A stretch of 64,000 nucleotides of DNA from a bacterium. GTDB taxonomy: Bacteria; Patescibacteriota; Minisyncoccia; UBA6257; GWB1-50-10. Shown in pieces: positions 2,706-50,834 of this stretch (positions within the stretch are counted from its first letter, which is position 1; the number at the start of each line of letters is the position of its first letter). A model generated the notes under the pieces. That model did not search any database, was not told where the DNA came from, and saw only the letters and a list, made by a program, of their open reading frames with translations. The position numbers and the translations under genes were made by a program. Location: NCBI GenBank assembly GCA_021815205.1, contig JAKAHD010000003.1:27239-91238 (forward strand). The letters are read 5' to 3'.

Positions 2706-2758
2706 AAATAACTCTCTTCTAAAACCGCGCAATGAAATTCCGGTCTTTCAAACACAAG

Positions 2759-2834
2759 AAGCTGGGTAAGGTAAAAAGTGGGTAAGACTGGGGCTAGCGC
2801 CCCGGAGCGCACACTTTCTTACCTTACCCAGCTT
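2759..2834. repeat. Hairpin element with conserved 31-nt loop (copy 1 of 2)
   Basis: 16-bp perfect inverted arms aagctgggtaaggtaa/ttaccttacccagctt around core AAAGTGGGTAAGACTGGGGCTAGCGCCCCGGAGCGCACACTTT; same core at 50376-50460 with unrelated arms. Confidence 0.8.
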
Positions 2835-2850
2835 CATAATCCAGGGAAAA

Positions 2851-3459
2851 TTAATCCGCGCGGCCCCTCCTCTCCATCACGTGATTGAAGTAGTCCTTAA
2901 AATACTCCGTCATGAGGTGCAGGATCACGCCGTGCACACCCTCAACGATCCCGTACCTTCCCTTCTCGGTCGGCACGAAGATCTTCACATCCGCAAGCTC
3001 GTTTAATTTTCCCCCATCGAACCCCGAGACGCCGATCACGGGCACCTCGCACGACTTCGCATATTCCACGGCCTTCAAAATATTTACCGAGTTCCCGGAA
3101 CTCGAAATCGCGATGATCGCGTCTCCCTCCCGCATATAGTTCTGAAGCGGCCCCAGAAACACCATATCAAACCCCTCGTCGTTCGCCCACGCCGTGAGCT
3201 CGGACTCGGTCGTCGGGAGCCGGATCGCCTGGAAGCGTTTCACCTGCTTTCCGAGATGATGGCTGAAGACCGTTTTATTGAAATCGCTCACCCAATGAGT
3301 CGCCATCGCGAGCGATCCTCCGTTTCCGAACACATAAATCCGACCGTCACGCTCATAGACGGCCTGCAATACATTAAAGGCCTTCGCAATCTCCTTGATC
3401 GGAAGATTGTGTATTGATTCATCCGTTCGCGCGAGAAATTGTTTGATATATTCTTCCAT
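2851..3459 (-). CDS. gmhA: Sedoheptulose 7-phosphate isomerase (SIS domain)
   Basis: SIS-domain phosphoheptose isomerase, YVFGNGGSLAMATHWVSDF matches GmhA core. Confidence 0.8.
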   Translation of the reverse strand: MEEYIKQFLARTDESIHNLPIKEIAKAFNVLQAVYERDGRIYVFGNGGSLAMATHWVSDFNKTVFSHHLGKQVKRFQAIRLPTTESELTAWANDEGFDMVFLGPLQNYMREGDAIIAISSSGNSVNILKAVEYAKSCEVPVIGVSGFDGGKLNELADVKIFVPTEKGRYGIVEGVHGVILHLMTEYFKDYFNHVMERRGRAD

Positions 3460-3463
3460 AATT

Positions 3464-4483
3464 TTAGAATCCGTTTTGATAATGATTGTTCAAAAGGATA
3501 TCGGTTCCCGTATGAGTAAAGTGGATGGGAAGCTCTCTCCCCTCGGGGAGTTCATGCTCCTTAAAGAACGTCTGCATCCTTTCGCGGATCTTTCCCTGCG
3601 CGGGGGGCGGCGCGATAAACATCACGCATCCGCCGCCGCCCGCCCCAAGAATTTTTCCTCCCCACGCGCCGGCGCCGAGTCCCGCGTTATAGATTTCGTC
3701 CACAAGCATATTCGGCGCGCTCGACGACAAGCTCTTTTTCCGCGCCCATCCTTCGTGGAGCATCTTTGCTATCCCCTTTATGTCTCCCGCGAGGAGCCGC
3801 TCGTTGAACTCGAAGACAGAATCCGCCATCTGTATATAGGTTTCAAAATTTTTATCAATCTTCGATTTTTGATCCGAAAGCACGCTCGATGCGGGGCGCG
3901 TGATGCCCGTATAGAAAAGAAGGATGTGATCCTCAAACTCGAGCTTCTTCTTGTAATCGAGAAGGATTGATTCCACATCGACGGAATCGTCGGGATTGAA
4001 CTGAAAGATATTGAACCCGCCGAACGAGGCCGCGTACTGATCCTGCTTCCCGATCGGCTCGCCCAAGAGCTCAATCTCGAGACGGGACGCCGCCTCCGCC
4101 GCCTCTTCCCTGCTTAATGTCTTTCCAAGATACGCATTGAGGCCTTTCATGAGCGCCACGGCGAAACTCGAGGAAGAGCCGAGGCCCGTTTTCGCCGGAA
4201 GATCGGCAAACGATCCGATCTCGATGCCGCTCTTCGTGATGTCGAGATCAAGGAGCGCCGCCCTCACGCGGGTATGCTGAATGTCCTTCGGATGGTCCAC
4301 AAGCTCCGTTTTTTGGTACTTCACCATGAACTTATCAACCAAAGGCGTGGGATTCACGAGTACATAAATATACTTGTCAATCGTCGCCGAAAGCACCCGC
4401 CCCGGGGAACGATGATAGAAATCGGGGAGATCGGTTCCTCCTCCCACAAAGCTCATGCGTAACGGCGCGCGAATCATTATCAT
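3464..4483 (-). CDS. hddA: D-glycero-D-manno-heptose 7-phosphate kinase (GHMP kinase)
   Basis: IRAPLRMSFVGGGTD N-terminal GHMP motif typical of HddA; stop 4 nt from gmhA start. Confidence 0.75.
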   Translation of the reverse strand: MIMIRAPLRMSFVGGGTDLPDFYHRSPGRVLSATIDKYIYVLVNPTPLVDKFMVKYQKTELVDHPKDIQHTRVRAALLDLDITKSGIEIGSFADLPAKTGLGSSSSFAVALMKGLNAYLGKTLSREEAAEAASRLEIELLGEPIGKQDQYAASFGGFNIFQFNPDDSVDVESILLDYKKKLEFEDHILLFYTGITRPASSVLSDQKSKIDKNFETYIQMADSVFEFNERLLAGDIKGIAKMLHEGWARKKSLSSSAPNMLVDEIYNAGLGAGAWGGKILGAGGGGCVMFIAPPPAQGKIRERMQTFFKEHELPEGRELPIHFTHTGTDILLNNHYQNGF

Positions 4484-33575: not shown

Positions 33576-35183
33576 TTATTCAAGTATTTTCTTCATCCTC
33601 TTCACCGCCTCCCTTATTTCCGCTTTCGTGGTATAGATCCCGAAACTGAAACGGACGCTTCCCCGCACGCGCTCCGAAGGGAGATGAAGCGCCTCTAACA
33701 CATGAGACGGGGCATACGATCTTGCACTACACGCGGAGCCGGAAGATGCCGCAATTCCCGCCATATCCATCTTCGTGAGCAGATCTCCCGCAAACTCCGT
33801 CGGAAAATAGACGTTCAGGATATGCGGCGCCGTATCGCTTCTTCCTTTATTCCTCCTTCCTGATTCCTGATTCCCGTTTATCGATGCCGGCGGATACACC
33901 TTCTTCAATGCTCTCCAAAAGTAATCTCTGATCTCCGTCACCCTCTTCACGTTTCTTGCGCGCTCCTTTTCCGCAAGGCGCGCCGCCTCACCGAACCCCG
34001 CGATCGCGGGCACGTTTTCCGTGCCTGAACGAAGGCCGAACTCCTGGCCGCCCCCCGTCACGAGCGGCTGCACCGCCCGCAAATCCGAATTTCGAAATCC
34101 GAAATCCGAAACCACGCTCTTCCCATTATTCTGAGTTCGCCTACCGGCGAACGAAGAATCTCCACGTAGAGATCCTTCACTCCACTCAGGATGACGTACT
34201 ACTCTCGAATTTCGTACATAGAGTGCTCCCGTTCCCTTCGGGCCGTAGATCTTCTGCGAGGAGAGCGTCATAAGGTCGACGCCGAGCTTTGCCGTATCAC
34301 AATTGAAATACTCGAATGCCTGCGCGGCATCAACGTGGAACAACGGATACGTTGTTCCAAAATCCGAATTTCGAAATCCGAAATCCGAAATACCGTTTCG
34401 TGCTTTTAATTTCGTGCTTCGAATTTGTTTCGAATTTCGTGCTTCGAATTTCGTATTTTGATAGTTGCGGATAATATCCGCAATTTGAGCGATGGGTTGT
34501 ATGGAACCAATCTCGTTATTCACGTACATCACCGACACAAGCACGGTGCGTTCATCGAGCGATGATTCGAGTTTCTTCATGTCCACAATTCCCTTCTTAT
34601 CGACGGGGAGCACCGCAATTTCCACTCCTTCTCTCTCGAGCGAGTACGCGGTGTCGAGCACGGATTCGTGTTCGATCGCCGAAACAATTATTTTAGGACG
34701 CTGATTTACGCTGATTGCTAGCTGATGACCGCTGATTTTATTTTTTATACCAGAGATCCTCCGCCTCGCGTGTTTTTCAAGGAATATCTCGGAGCTCTCA
34801 CGAGCTTGGTCTCCGAAGGAACCATGAGAGCGAGAGCGCATGACGTCTTCCGCCGCTGGAGCGGAAGAACGGCCGGTTCCGCGAGAAGCAAAAAGAGCGC
34901 TTCTCGCCACCCCGCGGAGCGCAAGGTTGTTCGCCTCGGTCGCGCCCGAGGTAAAGATCACCTCGCGGAACCTCCCGTTAATCGCCTTCGCGATCGTCTC
35001 CCGCGCCTTGTCCACTGCGCTCATCGCCTTTTGCCCGAAGGAATGCAAAGAACCAGGATTCCCGAAGTTGTCGGAAAAATACGGGAGCATTATTTTTCTC
35101 GCCTCGCTCCGCACCGGAGTCGAAGCGGCGTAGTCCAAATAAATCCTTCTCATTAAGATTGAATAACGGTAATGAGGCGGCAA
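33576..35183 (-). CDS. Cysteine desulfurase (NifS/IscS family) carrying four in-frame low-complexity insertions (true start may be 35153)
   Basis: YLDYAASTP, FTSGATEANN, PLP-lysine region SSQKIYGPKG, GGGQE-GLRSGTENV, C-terminal active-site SSGSACS; 535 aa vs about 385 typical; inserts map onto DNA repeat elements. Confidence 0.8.
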   Translation of the reverse strand: MPPHYRYSILMRRIYLDYAASTPVRSEARKIMLPYFSDNFGNPGSLHSFGQKAMSAVDKARETIAKAINGRFREVIFTSGATEANNLALRGVARSALFASRGTGRSSAPAAEDVMRSRSHGSFGDQARESSEIFLEKHARRRISGIKNKISGHQLAISVNQRPKIIVSAIEHESVLDTAYSLEREGVEIAVLPVDKKGIVDMKKLESSLDERTVLVSVMYVNNEIGSIQPIAQIADIIRNYQNTKFEARNSKQIRSTKLKARNGISDFGFRNSDFGTTYPLFHVDAAQAFEYFNCDTAKLGVDLMTLSSQKIYGPKGTGALYVRNSRVVRHPEWSEGSLRGDSSFAGRRTQNNGKSVVSDFGFRNSDLRAVQPLVTGGGQEFGLRSGTENVPAIAGFGEAARLAEKERARNVKRVTEIRDYFWRALKKVYPPASINGNQESGRRNKGRSDTAPHILNVYFPTEFAGDLLTKMDMAGIAASSGSACSARSYAPSHVLEALHLPSERVRGSVRFSFGIYTTKAEIREAVKRMKKILE

Positions 35184-36525: not shown

Positions 36526-36575
36526 CATCAACTCCCTATCGAAGTTCAACTTCACTATTTCTAGTGAAGTTGAAC
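36526..36575. promoter_or_regulatory. 21-bp perfect inverted repeat (cctatcgaagttcaacttcac ... gtgaagttgaacttcgatagg) in divergent promoter region
   Basis: Read directly; lies between divergently transcribed adenosyltransferase and tmk genes; no T-run, so operator-like rather than terminator. Confidence 0.4.
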
Positions 36576-36696
36576 TTCGATAGGAGAGCGTATGTGTCTT
36601 CTTATTCTGTGTTGCGCGCGCCCTGCTTCTTGTACCTTGTGTTTTTCCCCGCGTTGTTCTTTCATTACTCCATCTGCTATTTTAAAAGTAAGGAGA

Positions 36697-37335: not shown

Positions 37336-37433
37336 GGGTGCCCTAAGGGTGTCCAACCTCCTTAGGAGGTTGGACACCCTTAGGCCTTAGGATATCTCAC
37401 CCCCCTGGACACTCCTTCCCGTCTAGGGGATTT

Positions 37434-39183: not shown

Positions 39184-39303
39184 TTTATCCCGTTAGAAAT
39201 CGCGATTGCGGTTTATGATGGGATATCAACAATAACATCATGAATACAAGTCGCAATAGAATACATACCGCGAATTGCACAATCGCGATCTATTTCTAAC
39301 GGG
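39184..39303. repeat. 120-bp palindromic element with CCCGTTAGAA terminal inverted repeats
   Basis: cccgttagaaatcgcgattgcgg ... ccgcgaattgcacaatcgcgatctatttctaacggg; shorter relative at 49305-49346. Confidence 0.75.
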
Positions 39304-39969
39304 ATGAATACTTTTTTCGATTCCCTTGGCACGCTCGTCGTGCAGTATCCCGCGTGGAGCCACTGGCTTATCGCGCTCGGGATGGCGCTTCAGGGGGAGA
39401 TCACCATCTTCGTCTCGATGTACCTCATTGCGAACCGCTCGCTCGGATGGACGGACTTCCTGATTCCCGCATTCGCTTCCGTGATCATCGTGGACTACTT
39501 CCTGTACCTCCTTGGTCGCGCGCTTCGCACCACGCGATTCGGGTGGAAGTTCTATAAAAAAATAAAGGCGAAGAGGCGCACGCAATGGTACCTCTATTAC
39601 GTGCGAGAGAATCTGAACAAGCTCATTCTCATCTCGAAGTTCCTTTTGGGAGGCAACATTATCATCCTGACCGCGGTCGGTTGGGCAAAAACGAAGTTTG
39701 GAAGATTCGCGCGCGCACACTTCTTGAGCGTGAGCTTGTGGCTCGGATGCATGATCGCGATCATGTATTCGATGGCGTCCGGGCTCTTCTATCTCAAATC
39801 CACGGCCTCTTTGAAGCAGGTTGAGATCGGCATTGGTATTTTCGTGCTCATTATCTTCTTAGGAGAGTACATCCTGAAGCGCGCGCTCGGAAAACGGGTT
39901 GGGTTCGAGGCGATCTCGAAGGATCTTAAGGATGAGGACGAGGAGGAAGAGGAGAGTAGAGAGAATTGA
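39304..39969 (+). CDS. DedA/VTT-domain family membrane protein
   Basis: Multi-TM with VIIVDYFLYLLGRALR DedA-like core; acidic C-terminal tail. Confidence 0.5.
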   Translation: MNTFFDSLGTLVVQYPAWSHWLIALGMALQGEITIFVSMYLIANRSLGWTDFLIPAFASVIIVDYFLYLLGRALRTTRFGWKFYKKIKAKRRTQWYLYYVRENLNKLILISKFLLGGNIIILTAVGWAKTKFGRFARAHFLSVSLWLGCMIAIMYSMASGLFYLKSTASLKQVEIGIGIFVLIIFLGEYILKRALGKRVGFEAISKDLKDEDEEEEESREN

Positions 39970-40356: not shown

Positions 40357-40451
40357 ATAAAGTAATACGATAAAAATACAATAGTGACACGGTGGAAATA
40401 CAATCGCACAACTGCATCACTATTGTATCACCACCGTATCACTTTCTCTTG

Positions 40452-40752
40452 TGCCGCGGGGGTGAGTTGAACACCCGACGCCCGCCTCTTCCAAAGCGAC
40501 TGGACTATCTCATCACCCACCGCAACTAGATAAGAGTTGGGTGGGGCTGGGCGCTATTGCAGGATTATTGTTGGGACTCACCTGCTAGTCTCTACACCTT
40601 CCGAAGAACCGTAGCCCTCTTCGGCTTGGCTCGGGATTGTTTCTCATACAACATCGAGAAGTTTTCCCCGAGTTCACCCAGTTTTTAATTTTGCATTACT
40701 GCAAAATGCCCCAAAGATCTAGGGCGGCGCTCTACCGCTGAGCTACCGCGGC
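40452..40752 (-). tRNA. tRNA-Phe (GAA) interrupted by a 229-nt group I intron after U33
   Basis: 5' exon 40721-40752 and 3' exon 40452-40491 join into canonical cloverleaf (acceptor GCCGCGG/CCGCGGC, A73, anticodon loop CU/GAAGA, T GGGTG TTCAACT CACCC). Confidence 0.75.
40492..40720 (-). ncRNA. Group I self-splicing intron in tRNA-Phe anticodon loop
   Basis: Follows exon U; P1 CCCU/GGGG with U-G at splice site; 3' terminal G; R-like GUAGAGACUAG and S-like GAUAGUCC able to form P7; P2 and P8 hairpins. Confidence 0.65.
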
Positions 40753-42283: not shown

Positions 42284-42354
42284 CCTTTCGTATCGGGATA
42301 TAGTGTAACGGTAGCACGAGTCCTTTGGGAGGATTTAGTCTCGGTTCAAGTCCG
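42284..42354 (+). tRNA. tRNA-Pro (TGG), no encoded CCA
   Basis: Acceptor CGGGATA/TATCCCG, anticodon loop TTTGGGA with G37, T CTCGG TTCAAGT CCGAG, A73. Confidence 0.75.
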
Positions 42355-42661
42355 AGTATCCCGACAAAAATCAATTACCGCACCGCGAGCCGTGCGGTAT
42401 GAAAGAAACCCTTCGACTCGCCTCCGGCTCGCTCAGGGTATTTTTCTCCTGCCATTCATCCTCGCCGCGAGCGGCGAGGTATTCTGATGAAAAATAAAAG
42501 GTGGGCGGGTGAAGGAGCAGGTAGACCGGGTTCCTCGCCTGCTATGCATATGCGTAGCAGGCGGGCAGGGATTCCCGGCTCTCCGACAAATTTTTCTCGC
42601 CGAATAAACCCACACCTTCGCCGCAGGGTATCCTGAGGGTGTACAGTACGCAGGAGATCTC

Positions 42662-48615: not shown

Positions 48616-49508
48616 AGGATAGAACGATGCATGCGCCTCTTTGTTTCTCAACTCAAAAAGAGAACTGTAACGACCCTGTAACGTTACAGAAGACCCCGAC
48701 TTCCTCATGGTAGCAGAGGGGGGTGGATTGGGCTACCCAATTAGTCTCTTTCTCCGGAATGCAATGCCCGATGAGGTCTTCAAATACAATTCAAACGCCA
48801 CCGCTTTTTTCTTATTCAGAAAACCACAAACCCAGATAATTTTCCATGGCATGAACTTTGAGGTGTGTTTATTGGCGCAGCGTAGCGAGTGAAATGCAAA
48901 AGTGAAACTTTTGCGTTTCCGAGCACGCAAGCCAAGAAGGGGTTTAATGCCCCGCGGCGTGCCGCAACGGAAGTGCGCGAAGCACTCCATTATACTGGGC
49001 CCCGAGGTCGGATACCCTTCATTTGCGCCACTATTAAGAATTTAAAAACGGGCGCACGCAAAAACAAAAAATGTAAAGGCAATTTTTCTGCGAGGCAGCG
49101 CCGCTTGGCGGCACGGCGACGGGGCGGAGAGCGTGCGATTTAGTTTCGCTTCACCACGCGCTCCGCGCGTGGCACATTGTCAGCGATTTTGAAAATAGGT
49201 GCGAGCTTGGTAAAATAGAGACACACATCATAAAGAAACCACCCCTCGCGATTGAGGGTGGTTTCTTTTGAGTGCGGAATGGGAGAATCTCACTGCTCGC
49301 TCCTCGATAAATCCCGTTAGAAGCTCACGCGGGGCTTTCTGCTTCTAACGGGATAAACTCGGAGCTGCGCCTTGAGAACCCTCGGTTCTCAATACTCTCC
49401 AACACGGGGAACCGACCACGGTTCCCCGACCCCCTCCACTTGTTCGACTCTCCCATATGCTCACAAGAAAACCATCTGCACGAATACAGATGGTTTTCTT
49501 GTGAGCAG

Positions 49509-49579: not shown

Positions 49580-49740
49580 CTACTCCGCCTTCGTCGGATC
49601 CGGCGGGCAAGCCCGCAAAAAGACGCGAAGGGCGAAGTTTCTTTTTACTGTACCATAGTGCCTAAAAATAAGATCGGGTGCAAGAAGATGCCCCGCATGG
49701 AAATGCCAGAAATCCTATGCTATCATCGAAGGAGAATGAT

Positions 49741-50334
49741 ATGCGTGCATCGTGGAAAAGAATAGGCGTCATCATCACTGCGCTCCTTCTTCTCGCGGGG
49801 GGGATAGTGTATTTCGCCGTTCATACATGGGAGTCGCCGGTTCCCGTTGATTTTACGACGGCACGCAACCACGCGGCGACCGTGAGTCAGAGTATCGTAA
49901 CGCTTACGGAAGATACCAACAAAACGATTCAAGACATTCACACCGCCCAAACCGCCGGAACGACGGACCAGGTGCTCAGCCTTATCGACAACGCGAGAGG
50001 CACGAATGCACAGGCGTATGAGAAGGCCCTCGAGCTCTCGAAGGATCTCCAACGGATGACCGAGTCGCTACACCAGATACAGCCGCGGGCGCGCCAGCAG
50101 ATCGCCTACGAAGCGATCGCGATCGAGCTTTCCCTGACAAGCGAGTTCATCACCTACACCGGCGCCCTGAATGACTTCCTGAACACGCTTGCAAAAACGG
50201 TCACGGCGGGAGGATTCGAAAATCAAAGAGCGCTTTCGGGTAAGCTCGCGACGGTGAATGGGAAGGTGGCGATCATCAACAATCTGAACCGCGAATTCAA
50301 CCAAAAGATGCAGAAATTCGACGCCTCCTTATAA
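49741..50334 (+). CDS. Hypothetical membrane-anchored protein
   Basis: AAGGAGA RBS before ATG 49741; N-terminal TM helix; no known domain. Confidence 0.45.
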   Translation: MRASWKRIGVIITALLLLAGGIVYFAVHTWESPVPVDFTTARNHAATVSQSIVTLTEDTNKTIQDIHTAQTAGTTDQVLSLIDNARGTNAQAYEKALELSKDLQRMTESLHQIQPRARQQIAYEAIAIELSLTSEFITYTGALNDFLNTLAKTVTAGGFENQRALSGKLATVNGKVAIINNLNREFNQKMQKFDASL

Positions 50335-50375: not shown

Positions 50376-50460
50376 ACGCACAGTTTATATGGCAAAAAAG
50401 TGGGTAGGACTTGGGCTAGCGCCCCGGAGCGCACACTTTTTTGCCATATAAACTGTGCGT
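50376..50460. repeat. Hairpin element with conserved 31-nt loop (copy 2 of 2)
   Basis: 24-bp perfect arms acgcacagtttatatggcaaaaaa / ttttttgccatataaactgtgcgt around same core as 2759-2834 (2 substitutions). Confidence 0.8.
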
Positions 50461-50468
50461 CAACTAAT

Positions 50469-50834
50469 ATGAGACTCATCGGAAAACTATTATTTCACAT
50501 CTTCTCGAACGCGATGGCGCTCCTCATCGCCGCCCAGTTCGTGCAAGGATTCTCGGTGAGCATGGACGTGATCTCGCTCTTCATCGCCGCAGTGATTCTC
50601 ACGGCAATCAACCTGCTCATCCGCCCGATCGTGAAACTCATCCTCGGCCCCCTTATCTTCCTCACATTCGGACTCATTATTATCGCAATTAACGCACTTT
50701 CCCTCTTTATTCTTGACACGGTAAGTTCCTCGATTACAATTCAAGGGATACTTCCCCTTCTTCTTGCGACCCTCATTGTAGGAGCGGTAAATATCATAGT
50801 GGGCGCCGCCGCAAAAGCGGCGTACAAAAACTAA
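50469..50834 (+). CDS. Phage-holin-family-IV-like small membrane protein
   Basis: About 120 aa, 4 TM helices, LINALALL...LRPI pattern reminiscent of Phage_holin_4_2 family. Confidence 0.45.
   Translation: MRLIGKLLFHIFSNAMALLIAAQFVQGFSVSMDVISLFIAAVILTAINLLIRPIVKLILGPLIFLTFGLIIIAINALSLFILDTVSSSITIQGILPLLLATLIVGAVNIIVGAAAKAAYKN

Follow-up and report, generated by a model that had tools for sequence, protein, structure and literature searches.

Why do two hairpins of one patescibacterial genome carry nearly the same loop on unrelated stems? The question is raised by a 64,000-nt stretch of DNA, referred to here as the window, in which the two copies lie 47.6 kb apart. The initial annotation had described a near-identical core at both sites, and our comparison confirms it: a 43-nt segment is common to 2775-2817 and 50397-50439 with only two differences (A2785/G50407 and G2790/T50412), and both copies form strong hairpins. 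A 37-nt degenerate pattern matches the window twice, at these two copies and both times on the + strand, with 0 matches expected from 100 shuffles. The features of the two copies are as follows.

2758..2835, + strand: copy 1, whole hairpin (5' arm 2758-2781, apex core 2782-2810, 3' arm 2811-2835)
2782..2810, + strand: copy 1, apex core, GTAAGACTGGGGCTAGCGCCCCGGAGCGC
2791..2802, + strand: copy 1, apical mini-hairpin GGGC-TAGC-GCCC from the fold, extending to 2788-2805 in this copy
50376..50460, + strand: copy 2, whole hairpin (5' arm 50376-50403, apex core 50404-50432, 3' arm 50433-50460)
50404..50432, + strand: copy 2, apex core, GTAGGACTTGGGCTAGCGCCCCGGAGCGC
50413..50424, + strand: copy 2, apical mini-hairpin GGGC-TAGC-GCCC from the fold, at invariant paired columns of the family alignment

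Fold and gene context of the window copies

RNA folding gives a single long hairpin for each copy, with -51.8 kcal/mol (z = -8.25 against shuffles) for copy 1 and -53.7 kcal/mol (z = -9.07) for copy 2. The inverted-repeat search recovers arms of ~24 nt with one bulge for copy 1 (2758-2781 / 2811-2835) and a perfect 27-nt inverted repeat for copy 2, whose arms measure 27-28 nt; the arms of 16 bp and 24 bp, respectively, that had been assigned to the two copies were therefore too short. Nor is the "31-nt loop" of that description open, since the apex is structured, with a 4-bp helix (GGGC/GCCC) and a TAGC tetraloop placed on an 8x7 internal loop that a G-C pair closes. As had been claimed, the outer arms are unrelated between the copies; those of copy 1 resemble subfamily arms of another genome, OY970216.1 (e.g. 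at locus L048).

The apex core of copy 1 differs from the 29-nt core of ~95 Patescibacteria copies solely at position 9 (position 2790 of the window), where T of the family consensus is replaced by G, adding one extra base pair. In copy 2, the consensus A is replaced by G50407, a base rarely seen at this position of the family and also present in a copy at 4085-4173 of locus L070. A covariance model of the family (R1) scores copy 1 at 77.0 bits (E 3e-18) and copy 2 at 90.5 bits (E 7e-22); it detects only these two copies in the window and additional diverged copies in other loci.

Copy 1 is placed between minus-strand genes for a SIS isomerase (2851-3459) and for a nucleotidyl transferase (start at 2706), both of a heptose-nucleotide pathway, and stands 15 nt past the stop codon of the SIS gene. 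Its core, being on the + strand, thus runs antisense to both neighbours. Copy 2 is flanked by two plus-strand genes, an ORF of unknown function (49678-50334) and a gene for a 4-TM holin-like protein (50469-50834), 41 nt past the stop codon of the former and 8 nt ahead of the ATG of the latter at 50469, and its core is thus sense to both. The same-strand neighbours and the opposite orientation of the two copies relative to transcription, which had been noted before, are hence borne out by the gene context. The window shows no regularly spaced array of the CRISPR kind, as it contains two copies, and the copies elsewhere are dispersed singly.

As a separate observation, a sigma-70-like match (TTGCCA, 18 nt, TAATAT; a consensus match only) is present at 50441-50470, running from the 3' arm of copy 2 into the ATG at 50469. 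The insertion could thereby supply a promoter for the near-leaderless holin-like gene.

Apex, stem and folded strand of the family

The two hairpins are not a private pair. The exact apex 20-mer GGGCTAGCGCCCCGGAGCGC was found at 101 loci in contigs representing one genome per species, ~95 of which belong to Patescibacteria and carry the full 29-nt core and a stem; they come from roughly 50 species or assemblies. The remaining ~6 are chance matches in G+C-rich genomes and have no flanking core. The hosts comprise Saccharibacteria, the Kaiser-, Jorgensen-, Adler- and Nomurabacteria (Paceibacteria groups), Minisyncoccia and Peregrinibacteria/Peribacteria, and one complete Patescibacteria chromosome of 805 kb contains at least nine copies; in some genomes, up to three copies lie within 2.5 kb. 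The window itself is assigned to Patescibacteria by homologs of the SIS protein that borders copy 1. If the core were just a bare part of some larger repeat, stemless copies would be expected, as the initial annotation pointed out; the copies found are many, and all have stems.

Every copy presents the consensus core of 29 nt, GTAAGACTT-GGGC-TAGC-GCCC-CGGAGCGC, between pairing arms. This invariance is overstated and partly a matter of ascertainment, because the search demanded the exact 20-mer, and protein-level alleles do reveal core drift despite the near-invariance of the copies selected by the 20-mer. Most of the family genomes are metagenome bins that were examined as 8-kb pieces, and gene calls at the family loci are crude ORF calls unless confirmed by Pfam or PDB homology. 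Two loci may reflect assembly breaks at the palindrome: at 5555-5660 of L028, two cores stand ~70 nt apart beside a run of N, and at 478-512 of L038, a core is found without matching arms.

The element seems to have escaped earlier description. Rfam 15, applied to the whole window at gathering score, reports tRNAs and a group I intron and nothing at the hairpins, and permissive Rfam scans of both sites return generic miRNA-precursor-like hairpins far below threshold; the Rfam scan that had been suggested thus yields no family for either site. A full-text literature search found no description of the element either. We conclude that this ~83-base hairpin repeat of Patescibacteria (CPR) is previously undescribed. 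A 29-nt degenerate pattern has 0 matches in 2.9 million viral contigs, and a phage-borne element was rejected because no viral contig contains the core. A resemblance of the apex to RNase P RNA (GGUAAGA...CCGGAGC) was also dropped, since no rnpB is present in the loci examined and the topology differs. In RNase P RNA, the motif is a hairpin loop, with a topology unlike that of the element apex.

The element is ~83-85 nt long and is composed of an asymmetric 29-nt apex on a stem of ~27 bp. In the apex, a G-C pair closes an 8x7 internal loop rich in purines, above which a 4-bp helix is capped by a tetraloop of the form N-A-R-C; the distribution of arm lengths has a sharp peak at 26-28 nt. The stem ends are weakly conserved: they are purine-rich, often GAAAC...GTTTC, and the stem base has no conserved tetranucleotide. 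Within genomes the outer arms have an identity of 0.53 (~0.62 in two of them), compared with 0.27 between genomes. Several genomes have subfamilies of their own with arms common to several loci, and the loci of a Saccharibacteria genome share no more than the inner ~8 bp of the stem.

To what extent the stem is maintained can be seen from an ungapped alignment of 35 copies, in which 89.4% of the stem cells pair, against 57.4% with the partners shuffled and 35-52% with the partner slid by 1-3 columns. Both sides have changed in 27 of the 29 stem pairs, and the covariation score is 0.776 compared to 0.166. The apical helix covaries as well, GGGC/GCCC being replaced in diverged copies by GGCC-TAGC-GGCC or GGCC-AAGC-GGCC, with the loop kept as N-A-R-C. 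These data support the earlier proposal that structure, and not sequence alone, is conserved. Orthologous copies also stay paired via compensatory changes that involve even 8-bp blocks (L004 vs L050; L008 vs L012; L112 vs L051), implying either selection on the structure in place or a templated correction from arm to arm.

The pairs that deviate from Watson-Crick geometry are not distributed evenly between the strands. Along the stem, G.T/T.G oppositions outnumber A.C/C.A by 126 to 35 (p = 3e-13) and G.A/A.G outnumber T.C/C.T by 169 to 23; they recur at fixed distances from the core: G.A tends to occupy the first pair, and tandem A.G/G.A oppositions fall on pairs 3-4 or 7-8. The G.T excess is present in both GC-skew classes of the core strand, whether it is locally G-rich or C-rich (51:13 and 24:1), and is therefore tied to the element; mutation bias was rejected as its source on this ground. 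The core strand is also the better RNA folder than its complement in 78 of 96 copies. Since the G.U and G.A oppositions are confined to one strand, a single strand is the folded form.

The same asymmetry bears on the idea of a double-stranded DNA or cruciform site, dyad-symmetric, for a host protein in nucleoid organisation, replication or recombination. For such a site the orientation to transcription would be irrelevant, compensatory changes would also keep the dyad symmetry, and orientation does track strand composition, the core strand being the C-rich strand at 67 of 95 loci (p = 8e-5). However, the apex is asymmetric, the strand-specific mismatches (G.T >> A.C, G.A >> T.C) are meaningless in duplex DNA, and the presence or absence of the element in close relatives, together with copies inside genes, is hard to reconcile with a fixed function in the chromosome. 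The strand-asymmetric mismatches cannot be explained by a duplex site and can be by a folded single strand, of DNA or RNA; we regard the duplex site as very unlikely. The DNA and RNA forms of that single strand are indistinguishable from these data.

The initial annotation had favored a DNA-level or bidirectional element. One half of this proposal stands, as copies occur irrespective of which way transcription runs, and a DNA-level or mobile element therefore fits better than a cis-acting RNA. The other half does not, as the excess of G.T and G.A is strand-specific (126:35 and 169:23) and the element is thus not symmetric in the sense of "bidirectional".

Filled and empty sites between and within genes

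Copies of the family occur in all four arrangements relative to the neighboring genes and in both orientations. The intergenic ones start mostly 0-20 nt past a stop codon, often between convergent genes, although intergenic spacers are tiny in these genomes anyway. Between co-directional genes, the folding strand is antisense in 24 cases and sense in 11.

This placement can be read in terms of a structured RNA with a function for the host, i.e. a 3'-UTR hairpin that serves as a terminator, a stabiliser or a dock for an RNA-binding protein, each copy doing a job. Such an RNA, the main rival to a mobile element, is consistent with the position of the intergenic copies just past stops and between convergent genes, with the strong covariation of stem and apical helix, with G.U and G.A pairs on one strand, which are typical of RNA motifs, and with an apex kept across classes. 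Furthermore, A5 and T5 tracts surround the inner helix in copies of the Paceibacteria type, including both window copies. However, the folding strand is mostly antisense in co-directional contexts, window copy 1 included, many copies lie inside genes in either orientation, the element is missing from the same loci in close relatives, and no Rfam family matches. In the Saccharibacteria type, moreover, the T tract is located 5' and the A tract 3', which is the wrong way for termination. A consensus scan for intrinsic (Rho-independent) terminators flags neither window copy, and terminator identity was rejected for this reason; in the window copies, the T5 tract is itself base-paired, with the A5 tract as its partner within the long stem. 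An RNA or terminator that works for the host thus appears unlikely, and less likely than a mobile element.

The two window loci are occupied in this genome and free of the element in its relatives. The junction between the SIS and nucleotidyl transferase genes measures 144 nt in the window and 2 nt in loci L106 and L107, where the SIS protein is 77% identical and the gene order is the same; in closer relatives (SIS identity 86-88%), the next gene abuts the SIS gene with zero spacer. At the copy 2 locus, L109 and L110 have 0 nt and 7 nt, respectively, between the ORF and the holin-like gene. Because the junctions of the relatives are tight, both window copies are lineage-specific insertions of a whole hairpin, and the absence of the element from the relatives' loci means that it is not a conserved regulatory structure of these operons. 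Any terminator or RNA-stabilising effect at the window loci would be secondary.

In L108, a different inverted-repeat element (2325-2445) is placed exactly at the copy 2 junction. Its family, which is also present at 39187-39311 of the window, has terminal inverted repeats of ~24 nt (ATCCCGTTAGAAATCGCGAT...) and a divergent interior.

Empty sites also decide on another alternative, namely that the apex of 29-45 nt is itself a small element that entered the loops of older, long terminator hairpins, the stems being those old terminators. The window does contain perfect hairpins free of the core with similar stems of 21-24 bp (907-948, 36535-36584, 37342-37384 and 49458-49507), and the Saccharibacteria loci of one genome share only the inner ~8 bp, as such an origin would suggest. 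The junctions of 0-7 nt in the relatives, however, contain no hairpin, the empty alleles of tsaD and typA contain ordinary coding sequence, and whole arms are common to several loci in several genomes. Since the empty sites lack a hairpin, the element did not insert into an older one; this alternative is largely refuted, and we consider it most improbable.

In Saccharibacteria, many copies lie within long ORFs. They are read in four of the six reading frames, the other two frames containing stops, and the core is translated as ALRGASPSL, RSGALAQVL, VRLGLAPRSA or KTWASAPER. The hosts of these in-frame copies are tsaD, tgt, typA/bipA, ligA, uvrB, gatB, argS, mnmA, truB and the gene for cysteine desulfurase (class-V aminotransferase), and comparison with solved homologs demonstrates that the in-gene copies are insertions in otherwise collinear proteins. 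We also observe that eight of these ten host genes (among loci L004-L091) are related to tRNA or translation: tgt, tsaD, truB, mnmA, argS, gatB, cysteine desulfurase and typA. This bias may merely mirror the gene content of very small genomes.

Filled and empty alleles can be compared directly in two of these proteins. Of the 120 TsaD proteins compared from Saccharibacteria, about one-third have nothing inserted in one particular loop; in the remainder, that loop holds this element in either orientation or one of several other palindromic insert families, and a second loop behaves alike. Among 119 TypA proteins of 87-100% identity, empty and filled alleles stand side by side, the empty form having 605 aa and the filled form ~627 aa at 88-93% identity. 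Both orientations of the core occur at the same typA site, and some cores are drifting or partly deleted.

At least four other families of insert peptides are found in the same TsaD and TypA loops of Saccharibacteria (also in L011 and L087), including STRSSRPVVTG..., ANSRAAALRN, AFRSAAARELAP and ASEPRNDGRER. One of these peptide types, AEHKDLARAAWSVSEGH, is related to the apex of this element and has diverged from it.

These results also redefine what the hairpin can be. It had been suggested that the loop is a ligand or protein site of a regulatory hairpin present in two copies, and this view does not hold at these loci: the hairpin belongs to a multi-copy family that is missing from both loci in relatives and occurs in frame within genes. 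The initial interpretation is hence partly supported; its structural intuition was right.

How the stems arise can be approached at one site of tsaD, referred to as site 3. Here, the left arm of the hairpin is native coding sequence (REEIEKIF, against REEAEKIF in empty alleles), placed at an equal distance from the GGVSAN motif in filled and empty alleles, and it is the long form that is ancestral among bacteria. In the 66-nt insert, the core stands between the two strands of the inner stem (8 nt), and the remainder copies ~21 nt of the native sequence in inverted form. Since the arm is native and the insert carries its inverted copy, part of the stem could come from the target itself. In typA orthologous copies of two genomes, the inner 19 bp of the stem are common, and the outer 8-9 bp are different yet complementary.

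The net inserts at tsaD site 3 and typA (51-69 nt), in ligA (~60 nt) and at tsaD site 1 (72-81 nt) are shorter than the hairpin, and tgt and uvrB have longer net inserts with nested palindromes. A general rule of a fixed 66-nt insertion with one native arm was dropped, because the lengths at tsaD site 1, uvrB and tgt differ; the rule is clear at tsaD site 3, and the empty and filled typA DNA is ambiguous as to which bases are native. That the target or the opposite arm serves as template for part of the stem is therefore a lead and is not established.

Probable mobility, known repeats and other features of the window

Taken with the rivals discussed above, the data are best explained by a non-coding mobile palindromic element of the RPE/REP kind, which is probably recognised as a single-stranded hairpin via its apex. 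The element behaves like selfish DNA, even in frame within essential genes. It would spread and persist as a folded single strand, most likely of DNA, with an RNA intermediate as a possibility, and the apex would be the recognition site for a putative trans-acting protein that is highly conserved. The arms would need to provide just a helix of fixed length, with a free sequence as long as it is paired. With only helix length and pairing being constrained, two copies of one genome can share the "loop" on unrelated stems. The stem itself may be formed on a template provided by the target, as suggested by the native arm found at one site at least (tsaD site 3).

Several observations delimit this mobile element. 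Direct target-site duplications are not seen above chance in 72 copies, the longest flanking repeats being equal to those of the shuffled control, which excludes classical cut-and-paste transposition. The window genes scanned are all housekeeping genes and include no mobilising enzyme, which counts against mobility; between closely spaced copies there is likewise no transposase, the paired copies flanking uvrA, rpsL and sigma-70 genes. The different arms of the window copies give no sign of recent movement in this genome. In addition, a 29-nt core common to Saccharibacteria and Paceibacteria is unusually conserved for a selfish repeat and would fit a host-level function too.

It is conceivable, though rather doubtful, that the apex is the handle of a new insertion mechanism used across Patescibacteria, in which a conserved enzyme of the host or the element binds the folded apex on one strand and builds the stem of ~27 bp, partly by copying the target in inverted form. 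Such a mechanism would explain why the stem has a constant length and an arbitrary sequence, why one arm is native at tsaD site 3, why the outer stem is replaced in compensatory blocks between typA orthologues and why direct target duplications are lacking. If true, the element could enter essential genes without destroying them.

The closest known counterparts are the Rickettsia palindromic elements (RPE), short non-coding hairpin repeats in the reduced genomes of host-dependent bacteria, which lie between genes and in frame in housekeeping genes, where they are read through. They, too, comprise several families with filled and empty alleles. By description, the Patescibacteria element is alike in all these respects, as a short non-coding hairpin repeat of reduced host-dependent genomes that is found both between genes and in frame, in several families and with filled and empty alleles. 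The family as a whole shows a palindromic repeat in frame within genes as well as between them, the window copies being intergenic. The present element differs in its other lineage, its far wider span (several classes) and its constant apex on a hypervariable stem, and is smaller, with ~83 nt against the ~105-146 bp listed for RPE (Ogata et al. 2000; PMC3184786).

REP/BIME sequences are extragenic palindromes of 20-40 nt with a GTAG or CGTC tag at one stem end and are mobilised by RAYT (HUH) transposases (PMC3733652, PMC3184786). The Patescibacteria element shares with them the imperfect palindrome, the folded single strand, the strand asymmetry, the lack of a target-site duplication, the many copies and the frequent position just past genes. 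In contrast, it is ~83 nt long, is conserved at the tip, carries neither GTAG nor CGTC at the base of its stem and is also intragenic. In MITEs such as Correia, RUP and Nezha, the terminal inverted repeats are conserved and the target site is directly duplicated (PMC3184786). MITEs are likewise non-autonomous long stem-loop repeats with genome-specific bursts, defined by filled versus empty sites, but the ends of the Patescibacteria element are weakly conserved and no duplication above chance is seen; a classical MITE was rejected for lack of the target-site duplication.

Among terminator-like repeats and bidirectional terminators, to which SPRITE of S. pneumoniae belongs (PMC3184786), a position just past stops and between convergent genes is familiar, and the A-tract and T-tract around a G+C-rich inner hairpin in Paceibacteria-type copies add to the likeness. 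The tracts of the Patescibacteria element are, however, placed inside a longer stem, the window copies are unflagged and the family is also intragenic. Integron attC sites are strand-specific substrates of folded single-stranded DNA, with conserved R/L boxes at the stem base and a variable centre. They resemble the Patescibacteria element in the strand-specific folded strand and in the conservation of structure over sequence, but the arrangement is reversed here, with an invariant centre and a variable base, and there is no integrase or cassette context. Finally, mitochondrial genes of Nematomorpha contain coding palindromes of which both arms are translated (PMC6649704). The inverted repeats embedded in protein-coding genes are alike; the Nematomorpha palindromes are organellar, much longer and without a shared conserved apex.

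The element is, in our assessment, real and non-trivial, a small palindromic mobile repeat with an unusual architecture and an unusually wide host range. Patescibacteria genomes are usually called streamlined and repeat-poor, and yet they harbor a hairpin repeat in ~50 species of several classes, plus other palindromic inserts, which dot intergenic junctions and core translation and repair genes (tsaD, typA, tgt, ligA, uvrB). Such repeats inflate and vary the lengths of marker proteins regarded as conserved, and the palindromes can break assemblies and gene calls; conversely, the core provides a simple sequence tag for recognising Patescibacteria contigs. The constant tip, the free stem of fixed length, the strand-specific non-canonical pairs and the lack of target duplication point to an uncharacterised system of single-strand recognition, for which the 29-nt apex is a concrete bait to find the protein partner. 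The element is also a tractable case of how palindromes stay perfect inside coding sequence.

Other repeats and features were observed in the window. The four core-free hairpins located above are perfect, 21-23 bp long and unique in sequence, with loops of 0-8 nt and no shared core. The 3' end of a tRNA-Gly directly adjoins one of them, and another is situated between convergent genes; they may serve as terminators in this genome. At 40482-40730 on the - strand, Rfam reports a group I intron that overlaps a tRNA-Pro(UGG) called by ARAGORN (40451-40526), and a second tRNA-Pro(UGG) is found at 42294-42365 on the + strand; 40451-40730 may be an intron-containing tRNA gene.

The cysteine desulfurase of the window (33576-35183, - strand, 535 aa) has three in-frame insertions relative to solved homologs, at residues 96-163, 237-280 and 327-370. 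The second corresponds to an inverted repeat at 34358-34460 of AAATCCGAAAT-like units, and the same units are present in the third (34084-34112). [quoted passage not shown]
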